Notes under the pieces: generated by a model
The model's input: only the letters and a program-made list of their open reading frames with translations
Databases searched by the model: none
Told to the model about the DNA's origin: nothing
Program-made: the position numbers and the translations under genes
Sequence record: OR067838.1
Length of the DNA: 64,000 bases
Strand: one strand, 5' to 3'
DNA from: Escherichia phage KKP 3954
Part shown: positions 27,196 to 44,949 of the stretch, one piece after another
Layout of the letters: each line of letters opens with the position of its first letter
Numbering within the stretch: the first letter of the stretch is position 1

Positions 27196-29010
27196 ATGAA
27201 AGATTTATACCAAGATGTTTTTTCTTTTTTAGATCGCACTTCAGAAACATACACTAGAGAGAATGCAAACAAACCTTCCCACCTTGTTAACACGCACAGG
27301 GATCTCTTGGCGGGGATTTTAAGCAAACATATGGCAATGACACAGATACTGCCAAAAAACTTGTCAGAATGGCATACAGAAGGTTTTGGACATATTCACG
27401 ACTTGGATTATCTGCTCTCTCCTCTTACAAACTGTTGTCTTGTTAATTATCAAGATATGTTAGAGAATGGTTTTAAGATCGGTGCTGCACAGATAGAAAA
27501 ACCAAAATCTATTGGAGTAGCTACTACAGTGCTAACTCAAATCATCCAAGCTGTTGCCTCCAGTCAGTATGGAGGTCAGACGTGTGCGCACATTGATAAA
27601 GGTCTTAGTCCTTATGTTGAAGCCAGTTTCCTTAAAAACATGGAGATAACCAAACGTCGCTACGGTTGTTATGCAAGGAAAGAAGCCCTAGAAATGACCG
27701 AACAAGATGTATATGACGCTATGCAAACTCTTTTGTATCAGGTTAACACTTTAATGAGTGTTAATGGACAATCTCCTTTTATTACAATCAGTATGGGTCT
27801 GGATACCTCTGTTTTTGGCAGAATGATCACAGCTAACTATCTTAAAGTGCATAGTAACGGTCTAGGTAAAGATCATGTAACGCCTGTATTCCCTAAAGTT
27901 ATTTTCTTTTTACAAGAAGGTGTTAACATGAAACCTAGTGATCCTAACTACGACCTTAAGCAACAAGCTTTGGCATGTTGTGCTGATCGTATTTATCCAG
28001 ATTTTATTTCTGTTCCTTTGAACAAAGAAGTTACGGGATCAGCAGATGGTACCGTTACGAGTATGGGTTGTCGTTCCTTTTTGTCATACTATGCCACCGA
28101 ACAAGGAGAAAAATATGATGGACGATTCAACCTTGGAGTAGTTTCTATCAACTTGCCTCTGATTGCTGCGGAAGCGAGAAGTAAAGGAGAATCTTTCACC
28201 GATCTTCTTAATAAACATATGGAGATAGCCTACGATGCTCACATGCTACGTGTAAACCGTATCAGACATACCAAAGCATCTGAAAACCCTATTCTTTTCA
28301 TGGAAGGGGCTTTAGCGCGTTTAAATGCCAACGATGAAATTGGTGCTTTGTTTGAAGGTGGTTATGCTTCTATTAGTATTGGTTATGTAGGTCTTGCCGA
28401 AGCTTTGGAAATCCTTTATCCAGAGGAAAAAGATAAAAAGGAACTAGGTAAAAACATTCTGCAACATATGAAAGATATGTGTGCTGTGTTTAAAGAACGA
28501 TCTAAGTTGGCATTTAGTCTTTATGGAACTCCAGCAGAATCCTTGTGCTATAAATTTGCAACAGCTTTAAATGAAAAATATCCAGGTCTGGTAGAAAGAG
28601 ACTATCTTACTAATTCTTTTCATCAACCTGTATGGTTGGTAACAAATCCTTTTGAAAAATGGGATTATGAAGCAGGTTTTGCACAGATTAGCAATGGTGG
28701 TAACATAAGTTATGTCGAAACACCAAACTTAAAGAATAACTTAGAAGCTTTGGAGACTTTAGTAGACTACGCTTATGAACATATTCACTATTTTGGTATT
28801 AATCAGCCCGTGGATCAATGCTTTAAGTGTGGTTTTCATGGAGAATTTAAGGCAACGGCTAAAGGGTTTGAGTGTCCTAATTGTGGCAACCATGAAGAAG
28901 AAACTATTTCTGTAGTTAGACGTGTATCAGGGTATCTTTCTGCCCCTAATTCACGGCCTTATAACAAAGGTAAAATGCAGGAAGTTTTGCAAAGGGAGAA
29001 ACATCTTTGA
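27196..29010 (+). CDS. nrdD: Anaerobic ribonucleoside-triphosphate reductase (class III RNR large subunit)
   Basis: 604 aa; C-terminal Zn ribbon CFKCGF..CPNCGNHE and glycyl-radical motif RRVSGYLS. Confidence 0.85.
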   Translation: MKDLYQDVFSFLDRTSETYTRENANKPSHLVNTHRDLLAGILSKHMAMTQILPKNLSEWHTEGFGHIHDLDYLLSPLTNCCLVNYQDMLENGFKIGAAQIEKPKSIGVATTVLTQIIQAVASSQYGGQTCAHIDKGLSPYVEASFLKNMEITKRRYGCYARKEALEMTEQDVYDAMQTLLYQVNTLMSVNGQSPFITISMGLDTSVFGRMITANYLKVHSNGLGKDHVTPVFPKVIFFLQEGVNMKPSDPNYDLKQQALACCADRIYPDFISVPLNKEVTGSADGTVTSMGCRSFLSYYATEQGEKYDGRFNLGVVSINLPLIAAEARSKGESFTDLLNKHMEIAYDAHMLRVNRIRHTKASENPILFMEGALARLNANDEIGALFEGGYASISIGYVGLAEALEILYPEEKDKKELGKNILQHMKDMCAVFKERSKLAFSLYGTPAESLCYKFATALNEKYPGLVERDYLTNSFHQPVWLVTNPFEKWDYEAGFAQISNGGNISYVETPNLKNNLEALETLVDYAYEHIHYFGINQPVDQCFKCGFHGEFKATAKGFECPNCGNHEEETISVVRRVSGYLSAPNSRPYNKGKMQEVLQREKHL

Positions 29011-29477
29011 ATTTTGCAGGATATGAACCTGTAGATCTTATTAATGGTGAGGGAGTTAGGTGCTCCCTCTGGGTTAGTGGTTGTAGCCACGGTTGTCGTG
29101 GCTGTTTTAACCAGAAAGCCTGGTCTTATTCTTATGGGAAACCGTTCACTAACGAAAATGTAGAGCAAGTTTTAAAAGATTTGTCAAGACCGTTTGTAAA
29201 AGGTTTAACAATTTTAGGAGGAGAACCATTAGATCCGCAGAATATTTACAATGTTAAAAACCTTATAGAAAAGGTTAGAGACGTTTATGGGTCAAGCAAA
29301 GATATAATGGTGTATACAGGATATACTTTTGAGGAAGTGCCTTTGTATATTAAAAATCTTGTTGACATTATTGTAGACGGAAAGTATGAAATAAACAATC
29401 CAACCACAAAACCTTTCAGAGGGTCAGATAATCAAAGATTATGGACCAAAACGGCGAGTGGTTGGCAATCAGATTAG
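29007..29477 (+). CDS. nrdG: Anaerobic RNR activating protein (radical SAM)
   Basis: 156 aa; CSHGCRGC radical-SAM cluster motif; TGYTFEE and GSDNQRLW blocks as in T4 NrdG; TTG start overlapping nrdD stop. Confidence 0.8.
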   Translation: MNFAGYEPVDLINGEGVRCSLWVSGCSHGCRGCFNQKAWSYSYGKPFTNENVEQVLKDLSRPFVKGLTILGGEPLDPQNIYNVKNLIEKVRDVYGSSKDIMVYTGYTFEEVPLYIKNLVDIIVDGKYEINNPTTKPFRGSDNQRLWTKTASGWQSD

Positions 29478-29697: not shown

Positions 29698-30303
29698 ATG
29701 CAACATAGTGTAGTAGTCAACATGCCGAATAGTGGGGATAAATCTTTTGGTGTCCCTGCTAAAAAAGTGTGGAAAGCCCATTTTCATCTTACTTTATCTA
29801 ACGTTAGTTCTGAAGAGTTGATGAAAGCAGCTAAGATCATTGGTGCCAAATGCACAACAATTGATTTACATCGGGATACAAAGTCTCAACGTGATCGTAT
29901 GTTAACAAAGTATCAAAGCGATCTCGACACTACGTTAATGTTGCAATGTGTAGAAAAACTTGAGAATGCAGGTTTCAATGTTGTTCGTTACAAACTAGAA
30001 CGAATGTTCAAACATGTTGCCTGTGTTCTTTTCATGGATCTAAGCAAAGAAAATTACGGAGAAGTTCACATTAAAACTTCAGCAAGTGATCCTGAAGTAG
30101 AAACAAACTTCTTCCGTATTTCTTCTAATGCTGAAGAACTTGATTACCGATTTTACAATGCTCGCTTATATTCCGCAGAAGATAAGTTGCGTTTCAATGA
30201 AGCATATGATATGCTCTTGAACAGTGGGATACAGATAAAAGGCTACCACATAGAACAAGTTGTGGTAGACAGTAACTTAAATCTTGATGCATGGTGGGCC
30301 TAA
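29698..30303 (+). CDS. Hypothetical protein, first gene of the Ter-like cluster
   Basis: ORF track; SD GAGGAG. Confidence 0.55.
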   Translation: MQHSVVVNMPNSGDKSFGVPAKKVWKAHFHLTLSNVSSEELMKAAKIIGAKCTTIDLHRDTKSQRDRMLTKYQSDLDTTLMLQCVEKLENAGFNVVRYKLERMFKHVACVLFMDLSKENYGEVHIKTSASDPEVETNFFRISSNAEELDYRFYNARLYSAEDKLRFNEAYDMLLNSGIQIKGYHIEQVVVDSNLNLDAWWA

Positions 30304-30304
30304 T

Positions 30305-30961
30305 ATGACAATAAAACATATCTCTTTTGATGTATGGAATACTCTTATTTCTGCCAATCAAAACTATGCAGATGCACGTACGCACACTATTGCCACATAT
30401 GGTAGAATGTCTGAACGTGCCGCAAAAGAAGCATATAAAGATGCCAAAGAAATTATGGATAATGCTGCACTAAATGGGTGTGCAGAAGGTGTAGCATATG
30501 CATGGAATATGTTGGGAAGAAAGATAGGTTTAACCCCTGTAGAATCTGCACAAATGCGTTTTGAGTGTGAGCAATGGTTTCTTAAATTTCCTCCACATAT
30601 TGCTTTAGATTTGCCAGTTTGTTTGCTATACTTGTCTGGTAAATATGATCTTAGTATTAAAAGCAATACTAATTTTATATCTGGGGATATTTTGCGTCGT
30701 GCTTGCATGTTTGATAGTTGGAATTGTTTTGAATTTATGCATTTTTCAGACGAACATTTGTTGTGTAAACCAGATCCTAGATTCTTTGTTAGGACCGCAA
30801 CATATTCAAGCATTCCTTTGAAGGCTGAAGAGATTTTACATGTTGGGGACAGCGAAGAATTTGATGGAAAATGTGTTGACATAGGGATTAACTTCTGTCA
30901 TATTAAGAACCCTAACGACTTACTAGAGAAACTTAAAAGAGGAGAAATTGTAAATGCGTAA
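30305..30961 (+). CDS. HAD-superfamily hydrolase-like protein
   Basis: N-terminal ISFDVWNTL (HAD motif I variant) and later HVGDS; ORF track 30284..30961 trimmed to ATG 30305. Confidence 0.45.
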   Translation: MTIKHISFDVWNTLISANQNYADARTHTIATYGRMSERAAKEAYKDAKEIMDNAALNGCAEGVAYAWNMLGRKIGLTPVESAQMRFECEQWFLKFPPHIALDLPVCLLYLSGKYDLSIKSNTNFISGDILRRACMFDSWNCFEFMHFSDEHLLCKPDPRFFVRTATYSSIPLKAEEILHVGDSEEFDGKCVDIGINFCHIKNPNDLLEKLKRGEIVNA

Positions 30962-30990
30962 TCAAACTCAAATTTTTGCAAATAAATTTG

Positions 30991-31782
30991 ATGACACTGG
31001 AAACTGCTACTTTTGATATCAAAGATTATTCAAAATTGAAATTTGGTAGTAACCAAGCTGCGCGTCGTATGGGTAAAGAATTGGCACTTCAGTTTTTTGC
31101 TCAAGTGGCAATGAAACATATTGGGGAACAATTTGTTATCATTCCTTCTCCTTATAACCATGTGCATAATGCTGCAACAATGATGACAGATCATTTTATT
31201 AATTACTTTAATATGTTGCAAGCACAATATGATCAAGGTCGTTCAGCAGAACTGGATATTATTCATCGTAAAGTTAGCTATATCAACGATTATGGTTTCT
31301 TGGATAAAGCTAGTCGTAAGAAACTTATTGATGGGGATACATTCTACTGCAACAAAGAATTCTGGGGTGATAAGAAGCTTGTGTTCATTGATGATGTAAA
31401 TATCACTGGAACTCATGAAGACAAACTAATTGAGATTCTTGATGAAAATCAAGTTAAAAATGATGTTTACTTCTTGTATTTTGCAAAATATGAAGGTAAT
31501 CAAGCAGATACCGAAGCTAAGCTGAATTTTAACTATATTAATACACCAGAAGCGTTTGTTAAAATGATTAATGAAGAACGTGATGCACAGTGTCTTGTTC
31601 GTCCTATTAAGTATCTTATGGGCCAAAATCATGAAGACTTCAAAATCATTCTTAGCCAATTGCCACACTACTATGTGGAACAACTTTTCTTCGGCTGTTT
31701 AGCTGAAGGCTACAATCGAATTGCAAAGTATGCTGAAAACTTTGAGTTCTTGGATCGCTACACAAAACAACATATTCTGTAA
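30991..31782 (+). CDS. Phosphoribosyltransferase (PRTase type I)-like protein
   Basis: PRPP-binding motif KKLVFIDDVNITGTHEDKL; start ATG 30991 or TTG 30976. Confidence 0.5.
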   Translation: MTLETATFDIKDYSKLKFGSNQAARRMGKELALQFFAQVAMKHIGEQFVIIPSPYNHVHNAATMMTDHFINYFNMLQAQYDQGRSAELDIIHRKVSYINDYGFLDKASRKKLIDGDTFYCNKEFWGDKKLVFIDDVNITGTHEDKLIEILDENQVKNDVYFLYFAKYEGNQADTEAKLNFNYINTPEAFVKMINEERDAQCLVRPIKYLMGQNHEDFKIILSQLPHYYVEQLFFGCLAEGYNRIAKYAENFEFLDRYTKQHIL

Positions 31783-31795
31783 TAAGGAGCTAAAA

Positions 31796-32269
31796 ATGCT
31801 TAAAATGAAAACAGGTAATCTTATTGATGCCGCTAAAGCAGGTGAAGTAACTGTTATCGCTCATTGTTGCAATTGTATGTGTAATATGGGGGCAGGTATT
31901 GCCCCACAAATCAAACGAGCATTTCCTTACGCATATGCAGCAGACTTAGACACAATGGCTGGTGATCAAAGTAAACTAGGTTGTTTTAGTTTAGGGGTGC
32001 CAGACGAACAATCAGACCCTTTGGTATATAATCTATACGGGCAATACCGTTACGGATACAATGCTAAAGGTCGTCAGTTGGACTATGATGCACTTTACGA
32101 TGCACTAATAGCTATGGCTAATGATTTGCTTCTCCGTGACCAAAAATGTAAGATCGGCTTACCTATGATTGGCGCTGGACATGCTGGAGGTAATTGGGCT
32201 ATCATCCAAGTGATGATTGAAGAAACTTTAGTAAAAACAGGTCACGATGTGACTATTTATAAACTTTAA
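31796..32269 (+). CDS. Macro-domain protein (ADP-ribose binding/processing)
   Basis: VIAHCCNCMCNMGAGIA and GLPMIGAGHAGGNW blocks fit the macro-domain Gly-rich loops; SD AAGGAG. Confidence 0.55.
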   Translation: MLKMKTGNLIDAAKAGEVTVIAHCCNCMCNMGAGIAPQIKRAFPYAYAADLDTMAGDQSKLGCFSLGVPDEQSDPLVYNLYGQYRYGYNAKGRQLDYDALYDALIAMANDLLLRDQKCKIGLPMIGAGHAGGNWAIIQVMIEETLVKTGHDVTIYKL

Positions 32270-32281
32270 GAGGAGATTAGT

Positions 32282-32503
32282 ATGGGTGTTTTTGCAGGTA
32301 TTGTTGCAGTGGTAAGCTTTTTTGTTATTGCTTTTATGCTTAGTTTGATTCCAGCTTGGTTATTGTTGCTGGCTTACAACTATGTTGCTGAAGTTATGGG
32401 TCATGCAGATATCACTGTCCCAGTAACCTTCTGGACCGTGGTTTGTGTTTCGTTTATTCTGGCTGTATTACGAGGAATCTTTTCCTCTCATTCAACAAAA
32501 TAA
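32282..32503 (+). CDS. Small membrane protein (two TM helices)
   Basis: ORF track; hydrophobic throughout. Confidence 0.5.
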   Translation: MGVFAGIVAVVSFFVIAFMLSLIPAWLLLLAYNYVAEVMGHADITVPVTFWTVVCVSFILAVLRGIFSSHSTK

Positions 32504-32506
32504 GTG

Positions 32507-32534
32507 TTGACATAGTTCTTAAAAAGAGTAAGAT
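32507..32534 (+). promoter_or_regulatory. Early-family promoter (TTGACA, 16 nt spacer, TAAGAT) with GC stem-loop leader (32546-32564) upstream of the TerC gene
   Basis: Same promoter-leader architecture as the left-end early genes, here on the plus strand. Confidence 0.5.
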
Positions 32535-32584
32535 ATATCACATGAAGCGGGGAATAGTTCCCCGCAAAGAGAAAGGAGAAAATA

Positions 32585-33559
32585 ATGCAACTTGGTTTCC
32601 CAATCATTGATGTAGTTGTTTTAGTTGGTATTTTAGCATTGTCTATTGGTATCGATTTCTTTGGTCATAAAGAGAATAAAGAAATTGGAATTAAATCTGC
32701 TTTGCTTTGGTCTGTTTTTTGGATTGCTTTAGCTTTAGGATATTACGCATTCATTTGGGTAGAACATGGTAAAGAGTTTGCCGCGCTTTTCCTAAGTGGC
32801 TATGTGTTGGAAAAGAGTCTTTCTGTAGATAACCTAATGGTGTTCATGGCAATTTTTGCAAGCTTTGGAATTAAGAGCACACATCTCCAACATAAGATTT
32901 TACTTTGGGGGATTGCAGGAGCCATTGTCTTCCGAGGTATTTTTGTTGCAGCAGGCACCGCTTTGTTTAACCTTCATTGGTCGGTCCAAGTGTTGTTCGG
33001 TTTGATTGTAGCTTGGTCTGCCGTGGCTATCATCAAAGGTGGTGATGAAGAAGAGGATATCGATTACTCTAAACATTGGGCTGTTCGTTTAGTAGGTAAA
33101 GTTCTGCCTGTGCACAATGCACTGGATGGTGAAAAGTTCATCACCATTAAGAATGGTATTAAATATGCAACTCCTGCTCTTCTTTGTGTGTTTGTTATTG
33201 AGCTTACAGATATTGTCTTCTCTTTTGATTCAGTTCCGGCTGTGATCGGTGTGACACAAGAACCTGTGCTAGTTTATTCTGCAATGCTGATGGCTGTTCT
33301 TGGTTTACGTGCACTTTTCTTTGTGTTAAGTGTAGCTGTGAAATATCTGGTTCACTTAGAGAAAGCTGTTGCTGTGGTTCTGGTGTTTGTTGGTGCTAAA
33401 CTTATGTATCACCCGTTCGGTGAAACACTTCATGCCAAGTGGTCATTCCTCCCGCATGATATTTCCCCTAACGTAAGTCTGATGATTGTTCTAGGCACAT
33501 TAGCTCTTGGTGTTATTGCAAGCTTTATCTTCCCTGAAAAAGAAGAAGCTGCTGTTTAA
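32585..33559 (+). CDS. terC: TerC-family integral membrane protein
   Basis: 324 aa, multi-TM; conserved LSVDNLMVFMAIF and ELTDIVFSFDSVPAV blocks. Confidence 0.7.
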   Translation: MQLGFPIIDVVVLVGILALSIGIDFFGHKENKEIGIKSALLWSVFWIALALGYYAFIWVEHGKEFAALFLSGYVLEKSLSVDNLMVFMAIFASFGIKSTHLQHKILLWGIAGAIVFRGIFVAAGTALFNLHWSVQVLFGLIVAWSAVAIIKGGDEEEDIDYSKHWAVRLVGKVLPVHNALDGEKFITIKNGIKYATPALLCVFVIELTDIVFSFDSVPAVIGVTQEPVLVYSAMLMAVLGLRALFFVLSVAVKYLVHLEKAVAVVLVFVGAKLMYHPFGETLHAKWSFLPHDISPNVSLMIVLGTLALGVIASFIFPEKEEAAV

Positions 33560-33565
33560 TAGATG

Positions 33566-33590
33566 AGCCTCCTTCGGGAGGCTATTTTTA
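33566..33590 (+). terminator. Rho-independent terminator after the TerC gene
   Basis: AGCCTCCTTCGGGAGGCT hairpin plus T-run. Confidence 0.65.
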
Positions 33591-33602
33591 TAGGAGAGAC
33601 TT

Positions 33603-33953
33603 ATGAGCAATTTTGATGAAATTCAAAAACTTGTTTGGGATTTACCTGGTGATGTTGATTACGTTTCAGATTATCTTTCAAAAGTTTACCTTGGGGTAAG
33701 CGTTATGATTGTGACCAAAGATCCAATTAACCTTCCTCCTAATGTAGTAGCTTGTTGTGGAAGTGGTTCAGGAGAGGTAGAACCTGTATCTCGTTGGGAA
33801 TTAACCAAGGCTGTTTCAAAACGAAACGGCGAAGTTTTGAATATTGATATCGAACAAATCTGGACTTCTCCAGCCGCCAAGTGGAATGATCCTAATGGTT
33901 GGGATTTGTTCTTCTGGGATAATGAAACTGATGATGAGGTATTTTTAAAATGA
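33603..33953 (+). CDS. Hypothetical protein
   Basis: ORF track; SD GGAGAGA. Confidence 0.55.
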   Translation: MSNFDEIQKLVWDLPGDVDYVSDYLSKVYLGVSVMIVTKDPINLPPNVVACCGSGSGEVEPVSRWELTKAVSKRNGEVLNIDIEQIWTSPAAKWNDPNGWDLFFWDNETDDEVFLK

Positions 33954-34195
33954 AATACTTGTTGGTTGTGTTTGAAAATATTTGTTTTGCAATAGGGTTG
34001 TTTGTTGTAATTTTTGTATTGACAAGCGTAATCAACGGCAGTAAAGTGAGTTTATACCGAGATGGAGAGCAGCTTTATTGCTTCTCTGGAGATTTCAAAC
34101 ACAGATGTATTAATAGTCAAAACGAGGAAAGCAAATATGAAAAAACTAGCCCTGATTTTAATTGGTTGTATCTTTTTAACAGCTTGCGAGGATGA
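33950..34195 (+). CDS. Small membrane protein (single TM); 3-prime end overlaps the lipoprotein gene in another frame
   Basis: ORF track; the true end is uncertain. Confidence 0.35.
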   Translation: MKYLLVVFENICFAIGLFVVIFVLTSVINGSKVSLYRDGEQLYCFSGDFKHRCINSQNEESKYEKTSPDFNWLYLFNSLRG

Positions 34196-34574
34196 AACAA
34201 ATCCTACACAATATCAACAACCTCCTCAACAATACGCTCAACAAGGATCTGACGGAGATACAACTATTATCAACAATGGTGGCGGTTCTAGTAGTAGCGG
34301 TGTTGGTGAGTTTGCTACAGGTATGTTGTTAGGACATATGATGAGCGGTGGTAGTAATCGTAGCGGCGGGGATTATAACGATAACAGAACGATTATTAAT
34401 AAACATTATAACACACCTAAACCGAAAACTAATTTTTATGGTAAGCCTAAACAAGAGATAAAAACTTATGAAAAGCCAAGACAAACTTTTAAAACAAATA
34501 GCAGCTATACAACTCGTAAATCTTACAATAGCCCTTTAAGTAAAAAGAGTTCATCTCGTAGCAAGCGACGTTAA
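34137..34574 (+). CDS. Lipoprotein (signal peptide with LTAC lipobox; Gly/Ser/Asn-rich; basic C-terminus)
   Basis: ATG 34137 with SD GAGGAAAG; N-terminus MKKLALILIGCIFLTAC. Confidence 0.55.
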   Translation: MKKLALILIGCIFLTACEDETNPTQYQQPPQQYAQQGSDGDTTIINNGGGSSSSGVGEFATGMLLGHMMSGGSNRSGGDYNDNRTIINKHYNTPKPKTNFYGKPKQEIKTYEKPRQTFKTNSSYTTRKSYNSPLSKKSSSRSKRR

Positions 34575-34588
34575 TAAGGAGAAAAATA

Positions 34589-35182
34589 ATGACAATTTCT
34601 ATTCGTACTTCCATCGTAGGTGTTAAAAGGTTGCCTAATGCTTTGCAAATCACACGTGCTTTGAGGGATACGTTCTCTGCTGTGGATGAGCATAAGATGC
34701 TTGATAATCTGTCAAATTGGCCCTATTTTCATTATTTTAAAAATGAAGACGACGAGTTTATAGATGCTGTTTCTTATGGTTATGATTTCGGTAAGGAGGT
34801 TTCTCCTGAAGAATTTGTAGCTACGGTATTCCCAAATGGTTTCCCTACTCGCAGTAAACGTAAAAAAGGACCAAAAAACAAGAAACGTGCTACTAATAAA
34901 GCTACCATTTTCTTTACTGATGGGACACAGTATACGATTAAAGATTTTGAAGAAGTATCTTATACAGCAGGTGGGAATCTTTCTTTCTACACCATCAAAA
35001 AACAAAACTCTACGTTCAGCCATGTTTCTAACATGATTGAAATGTTAGTAGAAGATATTGAAAGCGTGGCTGTGTTAGGTATGCATAAAAGCTTTTTAAT
35101 TACAAATATTTCAGATTTCAGTGCACGTTTATCTGGCCCTGATTTTGAAGCCACGACCACGCATTTCACTTTTAAGGTGTAA
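34589..35182 (+). CDS. Hypothetical protein
   Basis: ORF track; SD AAGGAG; in-frame GTATAC at 34930 with no break. Confidence 0.55.
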   Translation: MTISIRTSIVGVKRLPNALQITRALRDTFSAVDEHKMLDNLSNWPYFHYFKNEDDEFIDAVSYGYDFGKEVSPEEFVATVFPNGFPTRSKRKKGPKNKKRATNKATIFFTDGTQYTIKDFEEVSYTAGGNLSFYTIKKQNSTFSHVSNMIEMLVEDIESVAVLGMHKSFLITNISDFSARLSGPDFEATTTHFTFKV

Positions 35183-35185
35183 GTT

Positions 35186-35776
35186 ATGTATACCGAGAGA
35201 GACTTGCAACTCTTGTGGTGGGAAGTGATGCAGGAAATAAAAGAAGATTTTCCTGTTTACTACAACATGTTACGTGAAGCAGGATATAAAGCTTGTGTTA
35301 GAAACAAAGTGAATAACTCTTTCGGTTGGTGCAACTACCGAGATAAAATTGTTGTTGTAAATTGGCACTTGCATAAGAACTCTACAAGAGATATGATCGT
35401 GGATACAATGAAGCACGAAATTGCTCATGCTATTGATGGTTGTATGGGTAAGTTTAGTCGGCACGGTGCTCATTGGCAAAAACTGGCAGCAGAATTAGGG
35501 GCTAATCCTAAAGCCACTTCCAAAGAGCCGTTGAACCACGAATATAAATATGTTCTTGTTCTGGTAGATAGGTTTGCGACAAGATGTGTTAGAGGTTATA
35601 ATCGTAAACCTAATCGCATGTACCCAGGTAAGCAACCTAATATGTGGTTGAAATCAGATAAAGAAGGGACCGAAGGAAAATTATGGTTGTATAAATGGGA
35701 CGATTGGGTTAAAGTAGCTAAAGAATACGGTGTTTCACCATATATAAGAGATGCAGAAGAGGAGAATGAAGAATGA
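35186..35776 (+). CDS. SprT-like zinc metalloprotease-domain protein
   Basis: HEIAHAI (HExxH) followed by HGAHW, as in SprT-like domains. Confidence 0.55.
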   Translation: MYTERDLQLLWWEVMQEIKEDFPVYYNMLREAGYKACVRNKVNNSFGWCNYRDKIVVVNWHLHKNSTRDMIVDTMKHEIAHAIDGCMGKFSRHGAHWQKLAAELGANPKATSKEPLNHEYKYVLVLVDRFATRCVRGYNRKPNRMYPGKQPNMWLKSDKEGTEGKLWLYKWDDWVKVAKEYGVSPYIRDAEEENEE

Positions 35777-36885
35777 CAAGTCCATTTTTAAAAGCAGCTA
35801 CTGGTGGTCAGAAGAAGCCTGAAATGAGCGTATTTGCTGCAACAACAGATGCAAGTAAATCTGTATTCGCTCCAAGCGTGTTAGATGCCAGTCCTGTTTA
35901 TGCACCAGCGGCACCGCAAGAAGTTCCAGTTTTGCCTTCTATGACCCGACAAGAGATCGAAGAGATTGGGGCAGAGGCAGGAACAACCTTGCGTTCCTTG
36001 AATGCCGAGGTATTAAAACATCAACGTAGTAATCAAGGAGATCAGATGAGTGAACGACTCACAGCTTTGATTAAACAGGCAAAACAACTTGATCCAAACT
36101 CTATTAAACAAAGCAAAGGTATTACTAAACTCATTAAAAAAGTTATGGGTATGAAAGAAGACCTGTTTGGGGAGTTTGATAATGTTAATAACCGTATTGA
36201 AGAGTTGGTAAAGAACCTTCAAATGGATATTCGCAAAGAAGAAGATTCCTTGGTATATCTTGAAAAGCTACATCAAGCTATTGGACAATATGCCGCAAGT
36301 TTGAACCGAGATATGCAGCTTCTAACAGCAACCTACGAAAAAGAAGAACAAGCTTTGGCTGCTCTTCCAGAAGATGCGGTAGAACAGCGACAAGTGATCC
36401 GAGATACTTTGGATCTTCTGGAGATTCGTATTGCGGATTTAAAAGCATTGCGCCTACTGTGTGTCCAAATGGGACCACGTGTGCAAGGTATGCAAAAAGT
36501 TTCTGCAAGCTTAATGCGATCTGCGCGTAACATAGTAAATAATGTTATTCCTGCTTACTCTGCTAACTTCTCAATGTATATTGAGAGCTTGCGTCAAATG
36601 AAAGCCGCAGAGACGCAGAATAACGTTCTTGATGAATTTAACCTGGCAATTAAACTGGGTAGCGATCTTGCCACACAGAATCAGATCGAAGCAGCAGCAC
36701 TGGCTAACCGTCAAGTGTTGGATATTGAAACTCTGCGTCACGATCAGGAAAACTTGGTTAAGATGTTGGAAGAAACTAACCGCATCAATACGGAAGCCCG
36801 TGCTGCTCGTGTTGATTATATTAATGAAGTTCAATCTCTGGAAGACGGGATGGTAGCTGCTGTGAAACGAGGGCTTGGTAAATGA
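35773..36885 (+). CDS. TelA-like (toxic anion resistance family) protein
   Basis: 370 aa, long predicted coiled coils; size and Ter-cluster context fit TelA; assignment from context and composition rather than a sharp motif. Confidence 0.45.
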   Translation: MTSPFLKAATGGQKKPEMSVFAATTDASKSVFAPSVLDASPVYAPAAPQEVPVLPSMTRQEIEEIGAEAGTTLRSLNAEVLKHQRSNQGDQMSERLTALIKQAKQLDPNSIKQSKGITKLIKKVMGMKEDLFGEFDNVNNRIEELVKNLQMDIRKEEDSLVYLEKLHQAIGQYAASLNRDMQLLTATYEKEEQALAALPEDAVEQRQVIRDTLDLLEIRIADLKALRLLCVQMGPRVQGMQKVSASLMRSARNIVNNVIPAYSANFSMYIESLRQMKAAETQNNVLDEFNLAIKLGSDLATQNQIEAAALANRQVLDIETLRHDQENLVKMLEETNRINTEARAARVDYINEVQSLEDGMVAAVKRGLGK

Positions 36886-37077
36886 GAATCCGTATCTATA
36901 TAATTGATGAAGACATTGGTGTCCGTTATGATGACGAAAAACGATTCGCACCGATGGGAGGCATATACCCCCAAGTGTTCTAGCAGTTTGTCGTGATTGT
37001 TATATTTATGAAGGTTGTCGTAACTTCCGTAAATTCGAACTCCTTGCAGATATTGACTTCAATGAGGAGGAGGAGTA
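36882..37077 (+). CDS. Small Zn-ribbon-like protein, apparently interrupted by a 1-nt deletion in a C5 run (36968-36972)
   Basis: ATGA coupling at both ends; 33-codon ORF stops at 36981 while the -1 frame encodes CRDCYIYEGC..EEEE up to a stop abutting the next ATG. Confidence 0.35.
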
Positions 37078-37251
37078 ATGAAAATATTACGAGTGAATAT
37101 TGAAACTGCTTGGTGTGGATGTAATGAGGTTGTGGATATCGAAATTGAAGATGATATGTCTCAAGAGGATATAGAAGATCTTGCGCACGAAACCTTTCAG
37201 GACTATTGTAATTACGGGTTCCATATTTTAGAGGAGGAAGAGGATGTTTAA
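37078..37251 (+). CDS. Small acidic Cys-containing protein (57 aa)
   Basis: Not in ORF track; SD GAGGAGGAGGAG then ATG 37078. Confidence 0.4.
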   Translation: MKILRVNIETAWCGCNEVVDIEIEDDMSQEDIEDLAHETFQDYCNYGFHILEEEEDV

Positions 37252-37447
37252 CTACGATAACGATCCTAATATTATCCAGTTAACCCGACAAGAACTGATC
37301 ACAATCATTGAAGATGCTTTTATTGATGGCTGGAATACACAAGATAATGACTGGGGTGGACCTGAAGCTTTTCTAGAACATCATAAAGCGTATGGAGAAT
37401 TTTGCGAAACCACTGTAGCTCTTGATAATCTGAAGGAGGGTTTGTAA
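37244..37447 (+). CDS. Hypothetical protein
   Basis: ORF track. Confidence 0.5.
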   Translation: MFNYDNDPNIIQLTRQELITIIEDAFIDGWNTQDNDWGGPEAFLEHHKAYGEFCETTVALDNLKEGL

Positions 37448-38010
37448 TGGGTTGTTTTAGTTTTTTGTGTAAGGAATCGGGCAAAGCTGCCCTTTCTACT
37501 TCTTTCGACGGATCACCTTGCTATCTCTTTCTTTTGAAGGATGGTGTTGTTATTGAAGAGATGTATGGCAACTATGATAGTTATGGTTGTGTTTTCTCTG
37601 GAAAGGAGGATGAAAATGGCGTTCGTGAGCGGTTCGAATGGGCTATGGATTGGGGTAAGGTTTGTGATTTAATGCATTCCTCGAATCCAAGGGACGGTAT
37701 CGCTATGGTGCTGGAAGAGTATTTTACAGGCGAGATCCCTACAGAACAATCTGACGGAGATCCTAATCAAGGTTGGGGTGATGGGGAAGAAGATCCAGAT
37801 TGTTTTTTCAGCACAGAAAAGAATAAGTTTAAACGTGTTGACAACCCTTATCACAAAGTGCATAATACTCTCATTGAAACAGAAGATAACAAGATGGAAA
37901 TTGAAGAAGATGATCCTCTTGTAACACTTCCTATAAGCGAGTTGCAAAAGATCACTAAAGAAGCTTACGATTTGGGCTTCAAAATTGGTAAAGGAGGTAT
38001 ACGTGTTTAG
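37447..38010 (+). CDS. Hypothetical protein (acidic)
   Basis: ORF track. Confidence 0.55.
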   Translation: MGCFSFLCKESGKAALSTSFDGSPCYLFLLKDGVVIEEMYGNYDSYGCVFSGKEDENGVRERFEWAMDWGKVCDLMHSSNPRDGIAMVLEEYFTGEIPTEQSDGDPNQGWGDGEEDPDCFFSTEKNKFKRVDNPYHKVHNTLIETEDNKMEIEEDDPLVTLPISELQKITKEAYDLGFKIGKGGIRV

Positions 38011-38281
38011 ATTCAATATTCAAGAAGAAAAGTGCCAGGATTTACCTATTGCTTTCGAAGATCTTGGCATAGGGGCCACATTCATGTATTATGATGCCTA
38101 TGAAGACGCAGGGTTGGATACCTACCGTAACTTGGTGTTCATTAAAAATTCCACAAACAGTGCGATCTGTATTAATGGATCACTAGCACAACGAGGCTAT
38201 ACTCATTGCATCCCACCAGATACAAATATGGTGGAAGTAGATTTAGAAGTTACCAATATTACACTTAAGAAGGAGAAATAA
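38003..38281 (+). CDS. Small protein, paralog of 39305..39574
   Basis: GTG 38003 with SD AAAGGAGG; shared blocks with its paralog (DL.IG.TF.Y, GLD, EV.L.VT.ITLK). Confidence 0.5.
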   Translation: MFRFNIQEEKCQDLPIAFEDLGIGATFMYYDAYEDAGLDTYRNLVFIKNSTNSAICINGSLAQRGYTHCIPPDTNMVEVDLEVTNITLKKEK

Positions 38282-38282
38282 T

Positions 38283-39079
38283 ATGTCCGAGAAAATCAGC
38301 CTGAAAAAACGTCAAGAAAACCTTGCTTTCTCTCTGAAAAAGAATAAGAACCTGAACGAAGGTAAGATTGTTCTTCGTGTAGCATGTGCTCTAGATATTT
38401 CTGGTAGTATGCATGGTCTATATACTCGTGGGGTAGTGAGTGATTTTGTAGGTAAACTGCTTCCTTTTGGTATGCTGTTCGACGATAATGAACAAATTGA
38501 CATGTGGGCCTTCAATACGAGTTCTCAAGAGCTTACTCCAGCAACAGCAGACGTTTACGATGACTACGTTGGTAAATGTATGCGTAATGTTCGTATCGGA
38601 GGTGGAACAAATTACGCCCCTGTAATGGCAGATATCTACGATGAGTATTTTGGCACTGTTACCAAATATGTTACCACTAAACAAGTGGTATACAAGAGGA
38701 GGCTCCAAAGAAAGGCTTCTTTAATCGTCTGCTTGGTAAAACTGAAACAGTATCGGTAGAGCGTGAAAAAGTTGTAGCTGTATCTGAACCAGGTGCTGAT
38801 GTTACTCCTGGCGTTGTATTCTTCCAGACAGACGGTGAGAATGGTGATCCTAGTGCTGTTCGTCGTCTTATTGAAGAGAATAAGAATAAGCCTATCTATT
38901 GGTTCATGGTTGGCGTTGGTAATGAGAAGTTCAGCTTCCTGAAAGAACTGGCAAATGCTTATGACAATGTTGGTTTTATTGGCATTAAAGATTTAGACTT
39001 GACAGATTCAGAGCTTTATGACAAACTCTTATCTGAAGAGTTCGGAGAGTGGGTTGTTAAAGTAGGTGCTAAAAAATGA
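38283..39079 (+). CDS. von Willebrand factor A (vWA) domain protein, TerY-like; split by an apparent 1-nt deletion at GTATAC 38688-38693
   Basis: MIDAS motif DISGSM in the N-terminal part (track ORF 38283..38759); vWA C-terminal half (VVFFQTDGENGD...WFMVGVGNEKF) continues in the -1 frame to a stop at 39077-39079. Confidence 0.6.
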
Positions 39080-39324
39080 TCGACGAGCTTGCCTCTCAAG
39101 TCGTAGAAAATTATTGGCGCGAGAGAGAAGCTTTCATTATGCGCAGTCTCAAAGAATATTTCATTGGGACTGTGAGGATGGAAGATATTGTAAGTAGAGT
39201 AGAGATTCATGTATGGCCTGATTATGAAGAATGGGTTGACAAAGAAAATGAAAATGCTATAATTCTTCGTATATACAAACCGGAGATAACATTAGGAGGA
39301 AGAAGTGTTAAACTTCGAAATTGA
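39076..39324 (+). CDS. Hypothetical protein
   Basis: ORF track; ATGA coupling. Confidence 0.5.
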   Translation: MIDELASQVVENYWREREAFIMRSLKEYFIGTVRMEDIVSRVEIHVWPDYEEWVDKENENAIILRIYKPEITLGGRSVKLRN

Positions 39325-39574
39325 TGAGCAAAAAGTAAATAAACGATGCCTTACCATTAAAGATTTGGATGTAGGAGATACTTTCGTCTATGAAAATGCA
39401 TTTGACGAAAATGGTTTAGACCTTAGTGAAGTAATTGTTTATTTAAAAGTAGATGATGGGGAAAATGATTATTCTGCTGTAGAACTAAACCATCATGCAC
39501 AATTAGTAGCAATCCAAAACACATCTAAGCTTTTGGAAGTAGAATTGACTGTAACTGGTATTACACTTAAATAA
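39305..39574 (+). CDS. Small protein, paralog of 38003..38281
   Basis: GTG start with SD GGAGGAAGAA; paralogous to the gene preceding the vWA gene. Confidence 0.5.
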   Translation: MLNFEIDEQKVNKRCLTIKDLDVGDTFVYENAFDENGLDLSEVIVYLKVDDGENDYSAVELNHHAQLVAIQNTSKLLEVELTVTGITLK

Positions 39575-39589
39575 TAGAGGAGACAAAAG

Positions 39590-40192
39590 ATGACTGATAA
39601 AATTTCCCTGAAAAAAGGCTCTAGCGAAAAAATTTCCCTGAAGAAAGTTGCTCCGGCTCTGAAAGAACTGCGCCTGGAATTCTCTTGGAAATCTGATTCT
39701 AAACTGGATCTGGATGTAAGTGCACTGGTTTGTCGTCATAATGCCGCTGGCAATCCTGAAATGCTGTCTGCACGTCATCTGGTTTGCTATGCTAACAAGT
39801 TTGATCCTGAACGTTCTACCTTCGCTGGTGACGATGTTCGTGATGGAACTGGCAGCATGGAGCAGATTGATATTACTCTGGCTAAAATCTCTCCTGATGC
39901 ACAAGAGATTGCCTTTGTTCTGACCATTGATGATGATACAGGTCTGAAACGTTTTGGTCATGCTTCTGAAGGTATGCTTAAAATCTTCGACTCCGAGCGC
40001 AATGTGGAAATTCTGGATTTTGACTTCCTGGCTCCTGAAGTAGCTGGCAACACAATCTGCCACGTGGCTTCCTTGGTTCGTGAAGATGGGGAATGGAAAC
40101 TGAAAGCATATGGTGTAGGTAAAGCTGGTCTGGATATTTGCGATGTGGTGATGGCCTTCGGTGGTAAAAAAGAATGGTATGAATGTCCATAA
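39590..40192 (+). CDS. terD: TerD-domain protein
   Basis: 200 aa; N-terminal ISLKKG..ISLKK and LDLDVSAL blocks and overall pattern match the TerD/TerE/TerZ family. Confidence 0.75.
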   Translation: MTDKISLKKGSSEKISLKKVAPALKELRLEFSWKSDSKLDLDVSALVCRHNAAGNPEMLSARHLVCYANKFDPERSTFAGDDVRDGTGSMEQIDITLAKISPDAQEIAFVLTIDDDTGLKRFGHASEGMLKIFDSERNVEILDFDFLAPEVAGNTICHVASLVREDGEWKLKAYGVGKAGLDICDVVMAFGGKKEWYECP

Positions 40193-40291: not shown

Positions 40292-40813
40292 TTGCTGATA
40301 AAAAACTTTGTAACAGTTGCGTTACTATCCTTAACTGCTTTTACATTTACACCTGTTGTGGCGAAAGCCGAAGCTGCAAACGTAAAAACCGCTAAAGTAG
40401 TTCACAAATATACAAAGCAATATAATGATAAAATTCTATTAGCTTGTGCAATTTACGCAGAAGGTCGCGGTCTGGGTAAAAAGGGAATGAATGCCGTTGG
40501 GAATGTGGTAATCAATAGAAGAAATGATGCCTACTTTCCTAACACAGTCAGAGGAGTCTTGTTCCAGAAAGGGCAATTCTCATATGCGAAAACTTTTAAC
40601 GTAACAGAGAAAGATAAGTGGCAGGAAGCAAAAGCAATAGCGGAGCGTTTACTTTATTTAGAGAAACATTTTCCTGAATTGCGGTCTGTTTTAGATGTTA
40701 CTAAAGGTGCTCTATACTTCAAGAAGCGGAATATAAAGACACACTGGGAGCGTGATATGCGTCTTGTTTATCGAGATAAAGTGCATGGTTTCTATCTACC
40801 AAAGGGGAGTTAA
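40292..40813 (+). CDS. Secreted cell-wall hydrolase, SleB/Hydrolase_2-like (lysin candidate)
   Basis: Signal peptide; ILLACAIYAEGRG..GMNAVGNVVINR..FPNTVRGVLFQKGQFS matches the cell-wall hydrolase fold. Confidence 0.6.
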   Translation: MLIKNFVTVALLSLTAFTFTPVVAKAEAANVKTAKVVHKYTKQYNDKILLACAIYAEGRGLGKKGMNAVGNVVINRRNDAYFPNTVRGVLFQKGQFSYAKTFNVTEKDKWQEAKAIAERLLYLEKHFPELRSVLDVTKGALYFKKRNIKTHWERDMRLVYRDKVHGFYLPKGS

Positions 40814-41514: not shown

Positions 41515-42078
41515 ATGATTTATTATATTACTCCCTATCTGACAGGAAATATCGGCAAGGCTATCAATGAAGCTATTGCCGTTCTTCCAGATGATAGTTG
41601 GGTGTGTTTAAGAGATACCGATACGATGTTCCTCCTACCTGATCAACCATCTATGCTTGAAGAGCTTGTTATGTCAAACCCGCCTTTTGATGTAATAGGT
41701 GCAACTTGTAACAGGTTAGGTAGTGGTTATCAGCTTTTCTCTAACCAAATTAACGATGATCCAGATATTCTAAACCATATAGAATATGCTAAGATTGCAA
41801 GAGAATATCATAAAGTGAGTGTTGAAGAAGTTCCTTTTGGAACACCTCTGGCAGGTTTCTTTTTGCTTTTTAGAAAATCATTGTGGAATGAAATTCCTTT
41901 CGAAGAAAAATCTATCCAATTTGACTTAATTTTCTCTCGCACTTTACATGAAAAAGGAAAGAGGTTAGGATTGATGCGGGGAATGTATCTGTTTCACATT
42001 TACAGATTAGGTCAAACAAATCCTCAACGGTCTATACATCATTTATTACACTGTCACGATCACAGTAAAACTATTTAG
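41515..42078 (+). CDS. Hypothetical protein, possible glycosyltransferase-like
   Basis: ORF track; DTD motif and cluster context only; weak assignment. Confidence 0.35.
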   Translation: MIYYITPYLTGNIGKAINEAIAVLPDDSWVCLRDTDTMFLLPDQPSMLEELVMSNPPFDVIGATCNRLGSGYQLFSNQINDDPDILNHIEYAKIAREYHKVSVEEVPFGTPLAGFFLLFRKSLWNEIPFEEKSIQFDLIFSRTLHEKGKRLGLMRGMYLFHIYRLGQTNPQRSIHHLLHCHDHSKTI

Positions 42079-42086
42079 GAGAGAAA

Positions 42087-42770
42087 ATGGAAAATATTAA
42101 AATCGGAGTGGGTGTTATCACTGTAGGTGTCCGTCCACTTAAAGACTACCTTGTAACAGATCCACATGCAGATTTTCGAGTATTCAACGATCCAGATCGT
42201 AAAGGTGTAGCTTACGCCAGGAATGAACTTATGCACCAGTTTTATGAAGAAGGTTATGATTATTGGTTTATTTTTGACGACGATTGCTACCCAATCATGG
42301 AGGGATGGGAAACATATTTTGTAGATCAAGCTGTCTCTGGAGGATGGGATTTCTTTGGTATGCCGGAGTATTTCAAAGATAAAGTTGTTGGGAGTAAAGG
42401 AGAAGTTATTCTCTGGGAACTTGCAATGTGTCAATTTGCAATGTATTCTCGTGCCGTTGTTGAGAAGATGGGTTATTTCCGCCCTTACACTCACGGCTAT
42501 GGTTTTGAAGATGCTGAATGGGTACACCGTTTGAAAGCTGCTGGTTTGAATCAGGGTATTCAGGCAATACCTTGTCCACTTCGTATCATGGCTTATATCC
42601 ACCCAGACGATGTTTTTGGAAACAATCCTATGCCTTTTGCTAATCTGACAAAAGAAGAGAAAGAAGCTGCTATTGGCATTAACTGGGAAGAATATAAAGC
42701 GTCTTTAGAAGATATTAAAAATGGGAAAATCCGAATTTCTTATGAGGAGGCACTGGCACATGTCAAATAA
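42087..42770 (+). CDS. Glycosyltransferase, GT-A fold (family 2-like)
   Basis: DxD-type motif FIFDDDCYP and GYGFEDAEW block. Confidence 0.55.
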   Translation: MENIKIGVGVITVGVRPLKDYLVTDPHADFRVFNDPDRKGVAYARNELMHQFYEEGYDYWFIFDDDCYPIMEGWETYFVDQAVSGGWDFFGMPEYFKDKVVGSKGEVILWELAMCQFAMYSRAVVEKMGYFRPYTHGYGFEDAEWVHRLKAAGLNQGIQAIPCPLRIMAYIHPDDVFGNNPMPFANLTKEEKEAAIGINWEEYKASLEDIKNGKIRISYEEALAHVK

Positions 42771-43707
42771 AAAATGGACTAAACTGAAAATTGATGCAAA
42801 ACCTCACAGTGGTTGTGATTATCATCGTATTGTTATACCATTTAACAACAATAATTTTCAGCCTAAGAAAGATGTTGTCGTGTTTAACCGTATTCATTCT
42901 AAAGGGGCAGAATATGTTCTGTCCCTGAAACGTCAAGGTGTTAAGATTATTGTAGATTTAGATGATTTCTACCAACTTAATCCAGAACATTATTTAGCAA
43001 GTTTATATGAGTCAAACACTCATGCTATTGTAGCTATGGTTAAGCTTGCCGATGTGGTCATTGTGACTACGGAATATTTGGCATATAAGATCCGTCACTT
43101 AAATAGGAATGTTGTTGTGATCCGAAATGCACTTCCTTTTGATAGCGGACAATTCACTTTGTCAAATGATCGTTCATCCGGTACCCCTGTTGTATGGGCT
43201 GGCGGTGCTAGTCACGAACCCGATTTACGACTAGTCTCTAATACTTTCGATGATGAACTTCTTACTATTGCAGGATATGAAGCATCGCAGAGTATCACGG
43301 GGCAAGAGTGGATTAAGATCCGTAGAAATTTACCAAACGCCAAATATAAAGCTGCTGTAAAAGATTTAGATAATTACATGAGTGTTTACGAAAGTCATGC
43401 TATTGCTATAGCTCCTTTGGTAGACAATGATTTTAATAATTGTAAAAGTAATCTCAAAATCCTTGAAGCTGGGGCAAAAGGTATTCCGATTGTTTGTTCT
43501 AAGGTATTACCTTATTTTAACCCTGTGGATGCTCGCGCTGTTGCTTACGCAGAGAATAAAGCAGAATGGCATTACGAAATTGTTAAACTTCTTCGCAATC
43601 CGAACTATCGGGAAGATCGCGGCTTGTTCTTAGCGGAACATGTTCGAACACATTATAATCTGGCAGATGCAAACGAATTGCGACGCCAGGTTATTGAAAG
43701 CTTGTAG
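42760..43707 (+). CDS. Glycosyltransferase-like protein, tandem paralog A
   Basis: Shares NNCKSNLKILEAGAKGIPIVCS and other blocks with 43715..44659; ATG 42760 with SD GAGGAGG. Confidence 0.5.
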   Translation: MSNKKWTKLKIDAKPHSGCDYHRIVIPFNNNNFQPKKDVVVFNRIHSKGAEYVLSLKRQGVKIIVDLDDFYQLNPEHYLASLYESNTHAIVAMVKLADVVIVTTEYLAYKIRHLNRNVVVIRNALPFDSGQFTLSNDRSSGTPVVWAGGASHEPDLRLVSNTFDDELLTIAGYEASQSITGQEWIKIRRNLPNAKYKAAVKDLDNYMSVYESHAIAIAPLVDNDFNNCKSNLKILEAGAKGIPIVCSKVLPYFNPVDARAVAYAENKAEWHYEIVKLLRNPNYREDRGLFLAEHVRTHYNLADANELRRQVIESL

Positions 43708-43714
43708 GTGAAGT

Positions 43715-44937: not shown

Positions 44938-44949
44938 CAGGAGAACAAA

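Follow-up and report, generated by a model that had tools for sequence, protein, structure and literature searches.

A block of Ter-type genes in Escherichia phage KKP 3954 is the Stephanstirmvirinae version of a known phage module

A phage Ter module and its published relatives

A 64,000-nucleotide stretch of Escherichia phage KKP 3954 (sequence record OR067838.1; hereafter the window) carries, at positions 29698-40192, a block of genes built around a Ter-type core. Both the module and the phage genus that carries it were known before: the block is the Stephanstirmvirinae version of the phage Ter module, and its novelty is low. Six core genes, encoding TerC, TelA, a vWA protein of the TerF type, TerD, a HAD hydrolase and a PRTase_3 phosphoribosyltransferase (PRTase), recur together in unrelated phages. 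Judged from its sequence the block is real and functional, while what it does is something that we infer. A first-pass annotation of the window had known of no characterised phage-borne system of this composition; phage Ter clusters with PRTase and HAD enzymes were, however, already in print (Iyer et al. 2021; the ZCKP1 paper), and in this respect the finding itself repeats existing literature on phage Ter genes. The additions made here are a corrected component list, the diagnosis of frameshift artefacts, the recurrent six-gene core, a DxWxT signature in the HAD protein and the bracketing of terC by a promoter and a terminator.

The closest published precedent is the description of phage Ter systems that combine PRTase and HAD ‘signal biosynthesis’ enzymes with TerD, TerC, TelA and a TerF vWA protein, for which competition with superinfecting phages was the proposed role (Iyer et al. 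2021, PMC7824862). The likeness lies in the component classes, the lytic tailed phages that carry them and the anti-superinfection proposal, and homologues of PRTase_3, TelA and TerD are common to the window and to the Caulobacter and Brevundimonas phages of that study. Unlike those systems, the present one sits in a genome of about 150 kb rather than in a jumbo phage, and the block adds Macro, SprT-like, lipoprotein and small transmembrane (TM) genes together with a dedicated early-class terC promoter, a feature on which that study is silent. Phage ME3 was not among the tblastn matches to PRTase_3, which may mean that it has a PRTase of a different family. Within the genus, phAPEC8, ESCO5/13/25 and ZCKP1 carry the same block at 97-98% nucleotide identity, and in phage phi92 the block is collinear (gp172-187). 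What sets this record apart is three frameshifts, probably sequencing errors, and nothing of substance. GenBank labels in these relatives include TelA-like, tellurium resistance, stress protein, orotate PRTase, phosphatase and VWA. The ZCKP1 paper listed four tellurite-related genes and suggested colicin resistance and superinfection exclusion, similar remarks on Ter genes are in print for phages phiKp34 and phiPsa374, and the phi92 Ter genes were flagged in a safety screen of the Intesti phage cocktail.

Core components of the block

The TelA-like protein (35773..36885, plus strand, as are all genes of the block) matches PF05816 at E 3e-33 (115.7 bits) and is 100% identical to its phAPEC8 counterpart, so that the TelA component of the Ter network is present. 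The TerD-domain protein (39590..40192) matches PF02342 at E 3e-28 (98.9 bits) and two TerD structures, 2KXT from Klebsiella (E 1.5e-15) and 3IBZ; identity to Klebsiella TerD is about 30% over the hidden Markov model alignment. Its acidic Ca2+ motif has changed from GDGDDE to GTGSME. A vWA protein (38283..39079) matches PF10138 in two fragments, as two extra bases (TA, at about 38690) interrupt its frame in this record; with the two bases removed it is a protein of 264 amino acids (aa) that scores 129 bits against the same family and has the MIDAS motif DISGS, while the generic VWA model stays under its cutoff. It is therefore of the TerF C-terminal type and not, as first labelled, TerY-like, and it is in this form that the vWA component of the network is found. 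TerC (32585..33559) is an integral membrane protein of the TerC/Alx family with multiple hydrophobic segments. It matches PF03741 at E 3e-40 (138 bits) and passes the TIGR03718 model of the TerC/Alx subfamily (318.3 bits against a cutoff of 246.4), which places it both in the network and in the Alx subfamily by sequence.

The set is not complete, although the first-pass annotation had called it apparently complete. TerB (PF05099) gave no match in any open reading frame (ORF) of the block at E <= 0.01, and profile searches of the block found no extra TerD paralogues, no TerY/PP2C/kinase triad and no ATP-grasp or HpcH-like enzymes. PADLOC returned no TerY-P match among the proteins scanned, a set that excluded the vWA ORF, and no kinase or PP2C domains occur in the block. 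The proposed match to the bacterial Ter operon neighbourhood stands for TerC, TerD, TelA, the TerF-type vWA protein, PRTase and HAD, and falls for Macro, SprT-like and the first ORF of the block (ORF1), whose association with the module is not conserved across other phages. At the level of single families, profile searches confirmed the earlier labels of TerC, TerD, TelA, PRTase, Macro and SprT-like.

Comparison with cellular Ter operons sharpens this picture. The terZABCDEF operon (R478, pTE53, the TAI island of E. coli O157, Klebsiella) shares TerC, the TerD fold and the C-terminal vWA type of TerF with the phage block. The block, in contrast, is without TerB, TerA, TerZ and TerE, has one TerD paralogue, and encodes distant proteins; its vWA protein does not have the complete TerD domain that TerF contains, and TelA and the PRTase_3/HAD pair stand in place of the missing members. 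Tellurite resistance needs TerB, TerC, TerD and TerE together, and only TerC and one TerD of these are found in the block. Phage ter subsets of such kind have been judged unlikely to confer tellurite resistance (PMC9796965). The yceCDEFGH operon of Bacillus subtilis resembles the phage block in combining TerD, TerC and TelA, and differs as a cellular stress operon without vWA or PRTase/HAD genes. It has three TerD paralogues, its TerC is MeeF/YceF, its TelA is YceH, and it contains no vWA protein and no PRTase or HAD enzyme.

The HAD-PRTase_3 pair

The biosynthetic pair of the Ter network, a PRTase together with a HAD enzyme, is present as two adjacent genes. The second encodes PRTase_3 (30954..31782), a ComF-like phosphoribosyltransferase that matches PF15610 at E 1.5e-41 (143 bits) and in which the motif of the loop for phosphoribosyl pyrophosphate (PRPP), DDVxITGTHE, is invariant. 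Against PDB sequences its sole match was a weak one to the PRPP loop of HGPRT, and no other solved structure related by sequence was found. The first gene of the pair (30305..30961) encodes a divergent HAD-superfamily hydrolase. It reaches 19.5 bits against Pfam Hydrolase, under the threshold of 26.4. Further matches are phrog_14393 ‘hydrolase’ and, with E values between 1e-8 and 1e-3 (best 1.3e-8), several HAD-IA models of NCBIfam, every one of these far under its curated cutoff. At the loci examined, in other phages and in rhizobia, the HAD gene always lies immediately 5′ of PRTase_3. The earlier HAD-like label, weak by Pfam, is thus supported by the NCBIfam matches and by the conserved pairing, even though the Pfam and NCBIfam cutoffs are missed.

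HAD motif I reads D-x-W-x-T in 13 of 13 aligned homologues (the window protein and those of loci L002-L009, L013, L021, L023 and L024), with a Trp in place of the general acid/base Asp+2, while the nucleophile Asp and the Ser/Thr, Lys and GDxxxD motifs are retained. Because this invariant Trp replaces Asp+2, the chemistry may differ from simple dephosphorylation, and an ordinary phosphatase appears doubtful.

Pairs of HAD and PRTase_3 genes at about 40% identity also occur in Rhizobium, Sinorhizobium and Ensifer (L011-L022), including plasmid pRL10. At the one rhizobial locus that was annotated (L013), a ClpP-like protease gene comes next after the pair and no Ter genes lie nearby. The scan of bacterial genomes for PRTase_3 was motif-limited and returned mostly rhizobial loci in which a ClpP-like gene accompanies the pair and Ter genes are absent; being so limited, it is no test of the published bacterial Ter linkage.

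Recurrence of the six-gene core

Homologues of PRTase_3 with about 48% identity were found on four unrelated metagenomic phage-like contigs. All four carry TerC, TerD, vWA-TerF-like, HAD and PRTase_3 genes within a few kilobases, in gene orders that differ, and a recognisable TelA is present in two of them. Proteins of 390-400 aa on contigs L006 and L007 were considered as divergent TelA and set aside, as their BLASTP comparison was not significant. Phage database records with matches numbered 156 for PRTase_3, 222 for TelA and 145 for TerD, and span Escherichia, Klebsiella, Caulobacter, Brevundimonas, Rhizobium, Xanthomonas and Pseudomonas phages. The recurrence of the core in unrelated phages is thus a matter of observation.

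Nucleotide-cofactor genes lie near some of these related phage Ter loci (L009, 13389-14351; L006, 13029-14612; L004, 17126-18803). The genes concerned are PRPP synthetase, which together with a SprT-like gene is near the module in L009, and PnuC-like nicotinamide mononucleotide transporters with NadR-like kinase or adenylyltransferase genes. Their presence might give a clue to the substrates on which the PRTase draws.

Phage ownership and selective maintenance

The block is flanked upstream by nrdD/nrdG (27196-29477) and downstream by a SleB-type cell-wall hydrolase, the lysin (40292-40813). This placement between nrdDG and the lysin in a lytic-type phage, as well as the common strand of all listed genes, had been noted in the first-pass annotation and is indeed seen in a lytic-type Phapecoctavirus (phAPEC8-like) genome; the relative ESCO25 is classified in Stephanstirmvirinae, genus Phapecoctavirus. 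The full-length identity of the block is 97.8% with Escherichia phages ESCO25, AV125 and nieznany; with phAPEC8_ev052, ESCO13 and Klebsiella phage ZCKP1 it ranges from 97.5 to 97.7% (97.5% for the last). At least 80% of it is covered in 63 phage records.

At a greater distance, phi92 (genus Justusliebigvirus; dS, the rate of synonymous substitution, is saturated) has retained 14 block genes without a change of order: HAD, PRTase, Macro, a 73-aa TM protein, TerC, an 81-aa TM protein, the lipoprotein, a 197-aa ORF (partial homologue), TelA, a 67-aa ORF, a 187-aa ORF, small paralogue A, vWA and TerD. ORF1, the 116-aa ORF, SprT-like, DUF7167, the 82-aa ORF and small paralogue B are missing in phi92, and we class these six as accessory for that reason.

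Recent host origin, in the form of a host-DNA insertion without phage signals, was one of the refutations that the first-pass annotation had itself named, and it is excluded. The GC content of the block (0.36-0.40) matches that of the remaining window, megablast of the block DNA against 5,426 complete E. coli genomes gave zero matches, and the phi92 block is collinear. The ratio of nonsynonymous to synonymous substitution (dN/dS) against SF1-1 is likewise low, at 0 for HAD, 0 for TerD (zero nonsynonymous differences, dN 0), 0.018 for TelA, 0.023 for TerC and 0.039 for PRTase_3; the reference gene nrdD has a value of 0.034. These values indicate strong purifying selection on the core genes, and the evidence as a whole points to an old, vertically inherited and selectively maintained phage gene set rather than host cargo.

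Three frameshifts in this record could be taken as signs of the opposite, namely that the block is passive cargo or a decaying remnant in the process of being lost. They affect PRTase_3, whose first 14 codons are out of frame through a +1 insertion at about 30996, a small 66-aa ORF broken by a -1 deletion at about 36968, and the vWA gene. However, the window differs from ESCO25 by about 13 non-triplet indels over roughly 50 kb aligned at >=97% identity, and the rate within the block is equal to, and no higher than, the rate outside. The 2-bp insertion in the vWA gene is shared by no phage record, while 55 carry the intact version, and dN/dS on either side of it is 0.02-0.12. With indels spread over the record, the vWA insertion unshared and flanking dN/dS low, the three block frameshifts are probably sequencing or base-calling artefacts. 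Pseudogenisation specific to the cluster is ruled out by the ESCO25 comparison, and the decay or cargo reading retains hardly any probability and can be taken as effectively excluded.

Six of the record’s indels are insertions that turn GTAC into GTATAC (3435, 6864, 9753, 15023, 19948 and 38691), of which that at 15023 lies inside a conserved ATPase gene; several of the remaining indels are homopolymer slips. The GTATAC sites look as if base-calling had erred systematically, perhaps because the motif is modified, given that an N6-adenine methyltransferase is encoded in relatives. The GTAC motif itself is under-represented about 3-6-fold: against an expectation of about 230, the window has 37 copies and ESCO25 has 71.

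A putative early-class transcription unit for terC

The 82-nucleotide (nt) gap before terC contains, in this order, a promoter-like element (TTGACA-16-TAAGAT), a 5′ hairpin (GCGGGGAATAGTTCCCCGC) and the ribosome-binding site of terC (32502-32575, plus strand). The pattern TTGAC-N24-40-GCGG-N8-16-CCGC has 15 matches in the window against 0.05 expected, of which 14 are minus-strand copies, located between small ORFs at 2.9-11 kb, and the fifteenth is the terC element. The early-type promoter that had been proposed in front of terC is thus a member of a repeated family. A covariance model recovered about 21 promoter-plus-hairpin members, the terC copy being the only strong one on the plus strand; as this copy was in the training set of the model, the independent evidence is the pattern count. 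In phi92 the terC promoter-plus-hairpin element is conserved, with compensatory changes in the stem.

Immediately 3′ of terC, a hairpin followed by a T-run (33566..33591, plus strand; AGCCTCC-TTCG-GGAGGCT) resembles an intrinsic terminator, and phi92 has a GC hairpin with the same TTCG loop at the same position. With a promoter-like element on one side and a terminator-like hairpin on the other, terC looks like a separate early-class transcription unit inside a block of another class. We found no description of this bracket elsewhere.

About 20 copies of the 70-nt unit (TTGACA, 17 nt, TAnnnT, then CACATAGGGCGG-loop-CCGC) lie between small ORFs on the minus strand at window positions 1670-10976. 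The unit looks like the phage’s family of early promoters with a 5′ stem-loop, and the minus-strand array of small ORFs is a putative early region, judged by an arrangement typical of one. A generic promoter scan of the window gave 51 sites against 43 ± 6 expected and so no overall enrichment. A perfect extended sigma-70 consensus (TTGACA, 16 nt, TG-TATAAT) is located at 39236-39263, within the 82-aa ORF and upstream of paralogue B and terD; it scores weakly (15 bits) against the promoter-family model.

Superinfection exclusion as the tentative function, and metal handling as its main rival

In the reading that we favor, the module may alter the envelope state of the infected cell and so exclude later phages, perhaps colicins as well. 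To this proposal, every functional step of which we infer, we assign somewhat less than an even chance. Production would start with TerC, transcribed from a promoter of its own of the early class and placed in the inner membrane; beneath the membrane, TelA, TerD and the vWA protein (through its MIDAS site) would come together. PRTase_3 would join PRPP to a base, HAD would then process the product, and the resulting nucleoside-like compound would be the ligand sensed by TerD-type domains. Exclusion and envelope protection are favored because a plasmid ter cluster shows the corresponding phenotypes, with both phage inhibition and colicin resistance attributed to the R478 cluster (Whelan 1995, as relayed in PMC9796965 and PMC6141743). 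The small TM proteins and the lipoprotein encoded between terC and telA fit the same envelope theme. Early membrane proteins or lipoproteins that block the DNA entry of secondary phages are familiar from T4 (imm, sp) and T5 (llp). The parallel with these is a functional analogy only, as no relationship in sequence or fold was found.

Several points weigh against exclusion. The plasmid ter phenotypes need TerB, which the phage block does not have, and the phage TerD is minus three Asp of the Ca2+-binding motif. As the HAD protein is without the phosphatase Asp+2, the order ‘PRTase then phosphatase’ may be wrong. Furthermore, the HAD-PRTase_3 pair occurs without recognisable Ter genes in XaC1, CcrColossus and rhizobial genomes (10-12 kb flanks), so its link to the membrane genes is not obligatory. 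The timing of the terC promoter is read from its sequence family alone, and literature searches gave no experiment on any phage Ter gene. Finally, what is established for the TerC family, namely Mn2+ export and metalation, points to a metal function rather than to exclusion.

This last point introduces the main rival, in which the module is a metal-homeostasis helper: TerC/Alx would export Mn2+ or another divalent cation, or metalate exported proteins, TelA, vWA and TerD would be cation-binding accessories, and the gain would be in phage yield rather than in keeping competitors out. TerC-family proteins are Mn2+ exporters and metalation factors that act on exoenzymes (PMC10550928; Alx in PMC10197570), and for the member MeeF (YceF) a role in Mn-dependent metalation during secretion has been shown experimentally (PMC10550928). 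The phage TerC passes the curated TerC/Alx model TIGR03718, the vWA protein keeps its MIDAS metal site, TerD has a Ca2+-binding fold, and the neighboring nrdDG genes encode metalloenzymes. Yet metal handling leaves the co-conserved PRTase_3/HAD pair unexplained, and no obvious Mn-dependent exported phage protein was identified. An Mn riboswitch ahead of terC was also considered and ruled out, as an Rfam scan of the window gave no match, the yybP-ykoY Mn2+ leader included, and the terC leader is the generic phage promoter-plus-hairpin. We therefore regard the metal reading as unlikely, and exclusion remains the reading that we carry forward.

In its boldest form the proposal would make the six-gene set a minimal self-contained Ter machine, in which the enzyme pair makes a new kind of nucleoside-like messenger that TerD senses, gating a membrane complex of TerC, TelA and vWA, with the whole switched on within minutes through the early promoter of terC. 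We give this version only a slim chance. If it were true, a 150-kb lytic phage would offer the first tractable system for the decades-old question of Ter function. Bacteria, plasmids and phages commonly carry Ter genes, which serve as markers of pathogenic E. coli and Klebsiella, and the phage version is compact, strongly selected and present in the easily handled coliphages phAPEC8, phi92 and EmilieFrey, which makes it a practical experimental entry point. EmilieFrey, one of the phages matched here, is a member of the BASEL collection. There is also a bearing on phage therapy, where the Ter genes of candidate phages are regularly listed as ‘resistance genes’ (the Intesti cocktail analysis, ZCKP1): to know whether they mediate no more than competition between phages would settle a recurring safety question.

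Accessory genes and the anti-defense and lysis-timing alternatives

Two further explanations, anti-defense and lysis timing, draw on the accessory and small membrane genes and are less supported. In the first, which the first-pass annotation had raised as a possibility beside host manipulation, PRTase_3, HAD, Macro and ORF1 would make or destroy nucleotide-derived molecules against host immunity, for example by removing DarT-type DNA ADP-ribosylation, by replenishing or sequestering signaling nucleotides, or by antitoxin mimicry. The Macro-domain protein (31796..32269) is of the SCO6735/DarG/TARG1 class; it matches PF01661 at 22.5 bits (cutoff 22), PADLOC DarG at E 2.7e-10 and, among PDB entries, 5E3B (E 1.9e-12), DarG 5M31 and OARD1, so that its nearest relatives are DarG and TARG1-class ADP-ribosyl hydrolases. 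ORF1 (29698..30303; 201 aa) is a lineage-specific gene, neither a core Ter gene nor the HAD. It matches PADLOC models labelled AbiEi over its full length at E 5e-13 and might act as an antitoxin mimic. In one related contig an Acb3-family gene and a cREC domain lie within 8 kb of the module.

The same genes also provide the counter-arguments. Macro and ORF1 belong to the module only in some phages, the Macro gene adjoining it in phi92 and lying 7-8 kb off in XaC1 and L008. ORF1 matches no Pfam family, AbiEi included, and its confident predicted model retrieves only generic ferredoxin-like PDB entries; its fold relatives are uncharacterised proteins of Acinetobacter phage ME3, Sinorhizobium phage phiM12, Aeromonas phage LAh_8 and giant viruses (Klosneuvirus, Bodo saltans virus). 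In addition, the membrane and sub-membrane proteins have no known anti-defense role. Anti-defense is for these reasons quite unlikely.

Three small genes give the block its further membrane character. The first encodes a 73-aa protein (32282..32503; phrog_16065) with two hydrophobic segments, consistent with two TM helices; it is kept in phi92, and with 82% aa identity to SF1-1 it is the most divergent gene of the block. The others are an 81-aa protein with one N-terminal TM segment by hydropathy (33950..34195) and, in an overlapping gene (34137..34574), a predicted lipoprotein that is rich in Q/G/S/N, has a basic C-terminus and begins with MKKLALILIGCIFLTAC, with the lipobox LTAC. The phi92 homologue of the latter, gp180, is annotated with a signal peptide. 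Both the small membrane protein and the lipoprotein had been called correctly in the first pass.

Such proteins invite a lysis-timing or membrane-integrity reading, in which TelA, TerC, the small TM proteins and the lipoprotein would stabilise the inner membrane or act like holins or antiholins, delaying lysis until assembly is complete. The 100 bp that separate the end of the block from the start of the endolysin gene agree with this, as does the presence of the three membrane genes just described. On the other hand, no holin family match was found, and the Ter genes of other phages lie away from lysis genes. The overlapping pair at 33950-34574 was also rejected as a spanin pair, because the curated i- and o-spanins of phAPEC8 sit elsewhere, at 62013-62641 of NC_020079, and have different sequences. 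Control of lysis is in our estimate very unlikely, and the membrane genes are read here, as before, in terms of envelope change and exclusion.

The remaining genes of the block are mostly small. A 116-aa protein without a family (33603..33953), absent in phi92, precedes the 81-aa gene, and a 197-aa protein partly conserved in phi92 gp179 (34589..35182) follows the lipoprotein. The SprT-like zinc metalloprotease (35186..35776) matches PF10263 at E 4e-9 and has the motif HEIAH; its counterpart in contig L009 lies about 9 kb from the module. Downstream of telA are the small ORF that carries the 1-nt deletion (36882..37082; 66 aa in SF1-1, matched in position by gp177 of phi92), two small ORFs for a 57-aa DUF7167 protein and a 67-aa protein (37078..37447), and a 187-aa protein (37447..38010) with an N-terminal domain (about 135 aa) that is found across many phages. 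This last ORF was considered as a hidden Ter component and rejected, since the domain is common both in phages without Ter genes and in phage metagenomes, shows no linkage to Ter genes and gave no PDB fold match. Small paralogue A (37985..38281) lies directly 5′ of the vWA gene, and an 82-aa protein and small paralogue B (39305-39574) occupy 39076..39574, between vWA and terD; A and B share 30% identity (E 1e-12), in line with the earlier description of two paralogous small proteins.

Outside the block, a 471-aa ORF upstream of nrdD (window 25677-27092) is labelled ‘ribonucleotide reductase / class III RNR’ in relatives and has no Pfam match here. Directly past the lysin, a run of glycosyltransferase genes extends over window positions 41515-45000. 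For the glycosyltransferases beyond the lysin, cell-surface modification was suggested in the ZCKP1 paper, and one of those in the window has a weak match to a TET-associated glycosyltransferase (E 1.3e-3).

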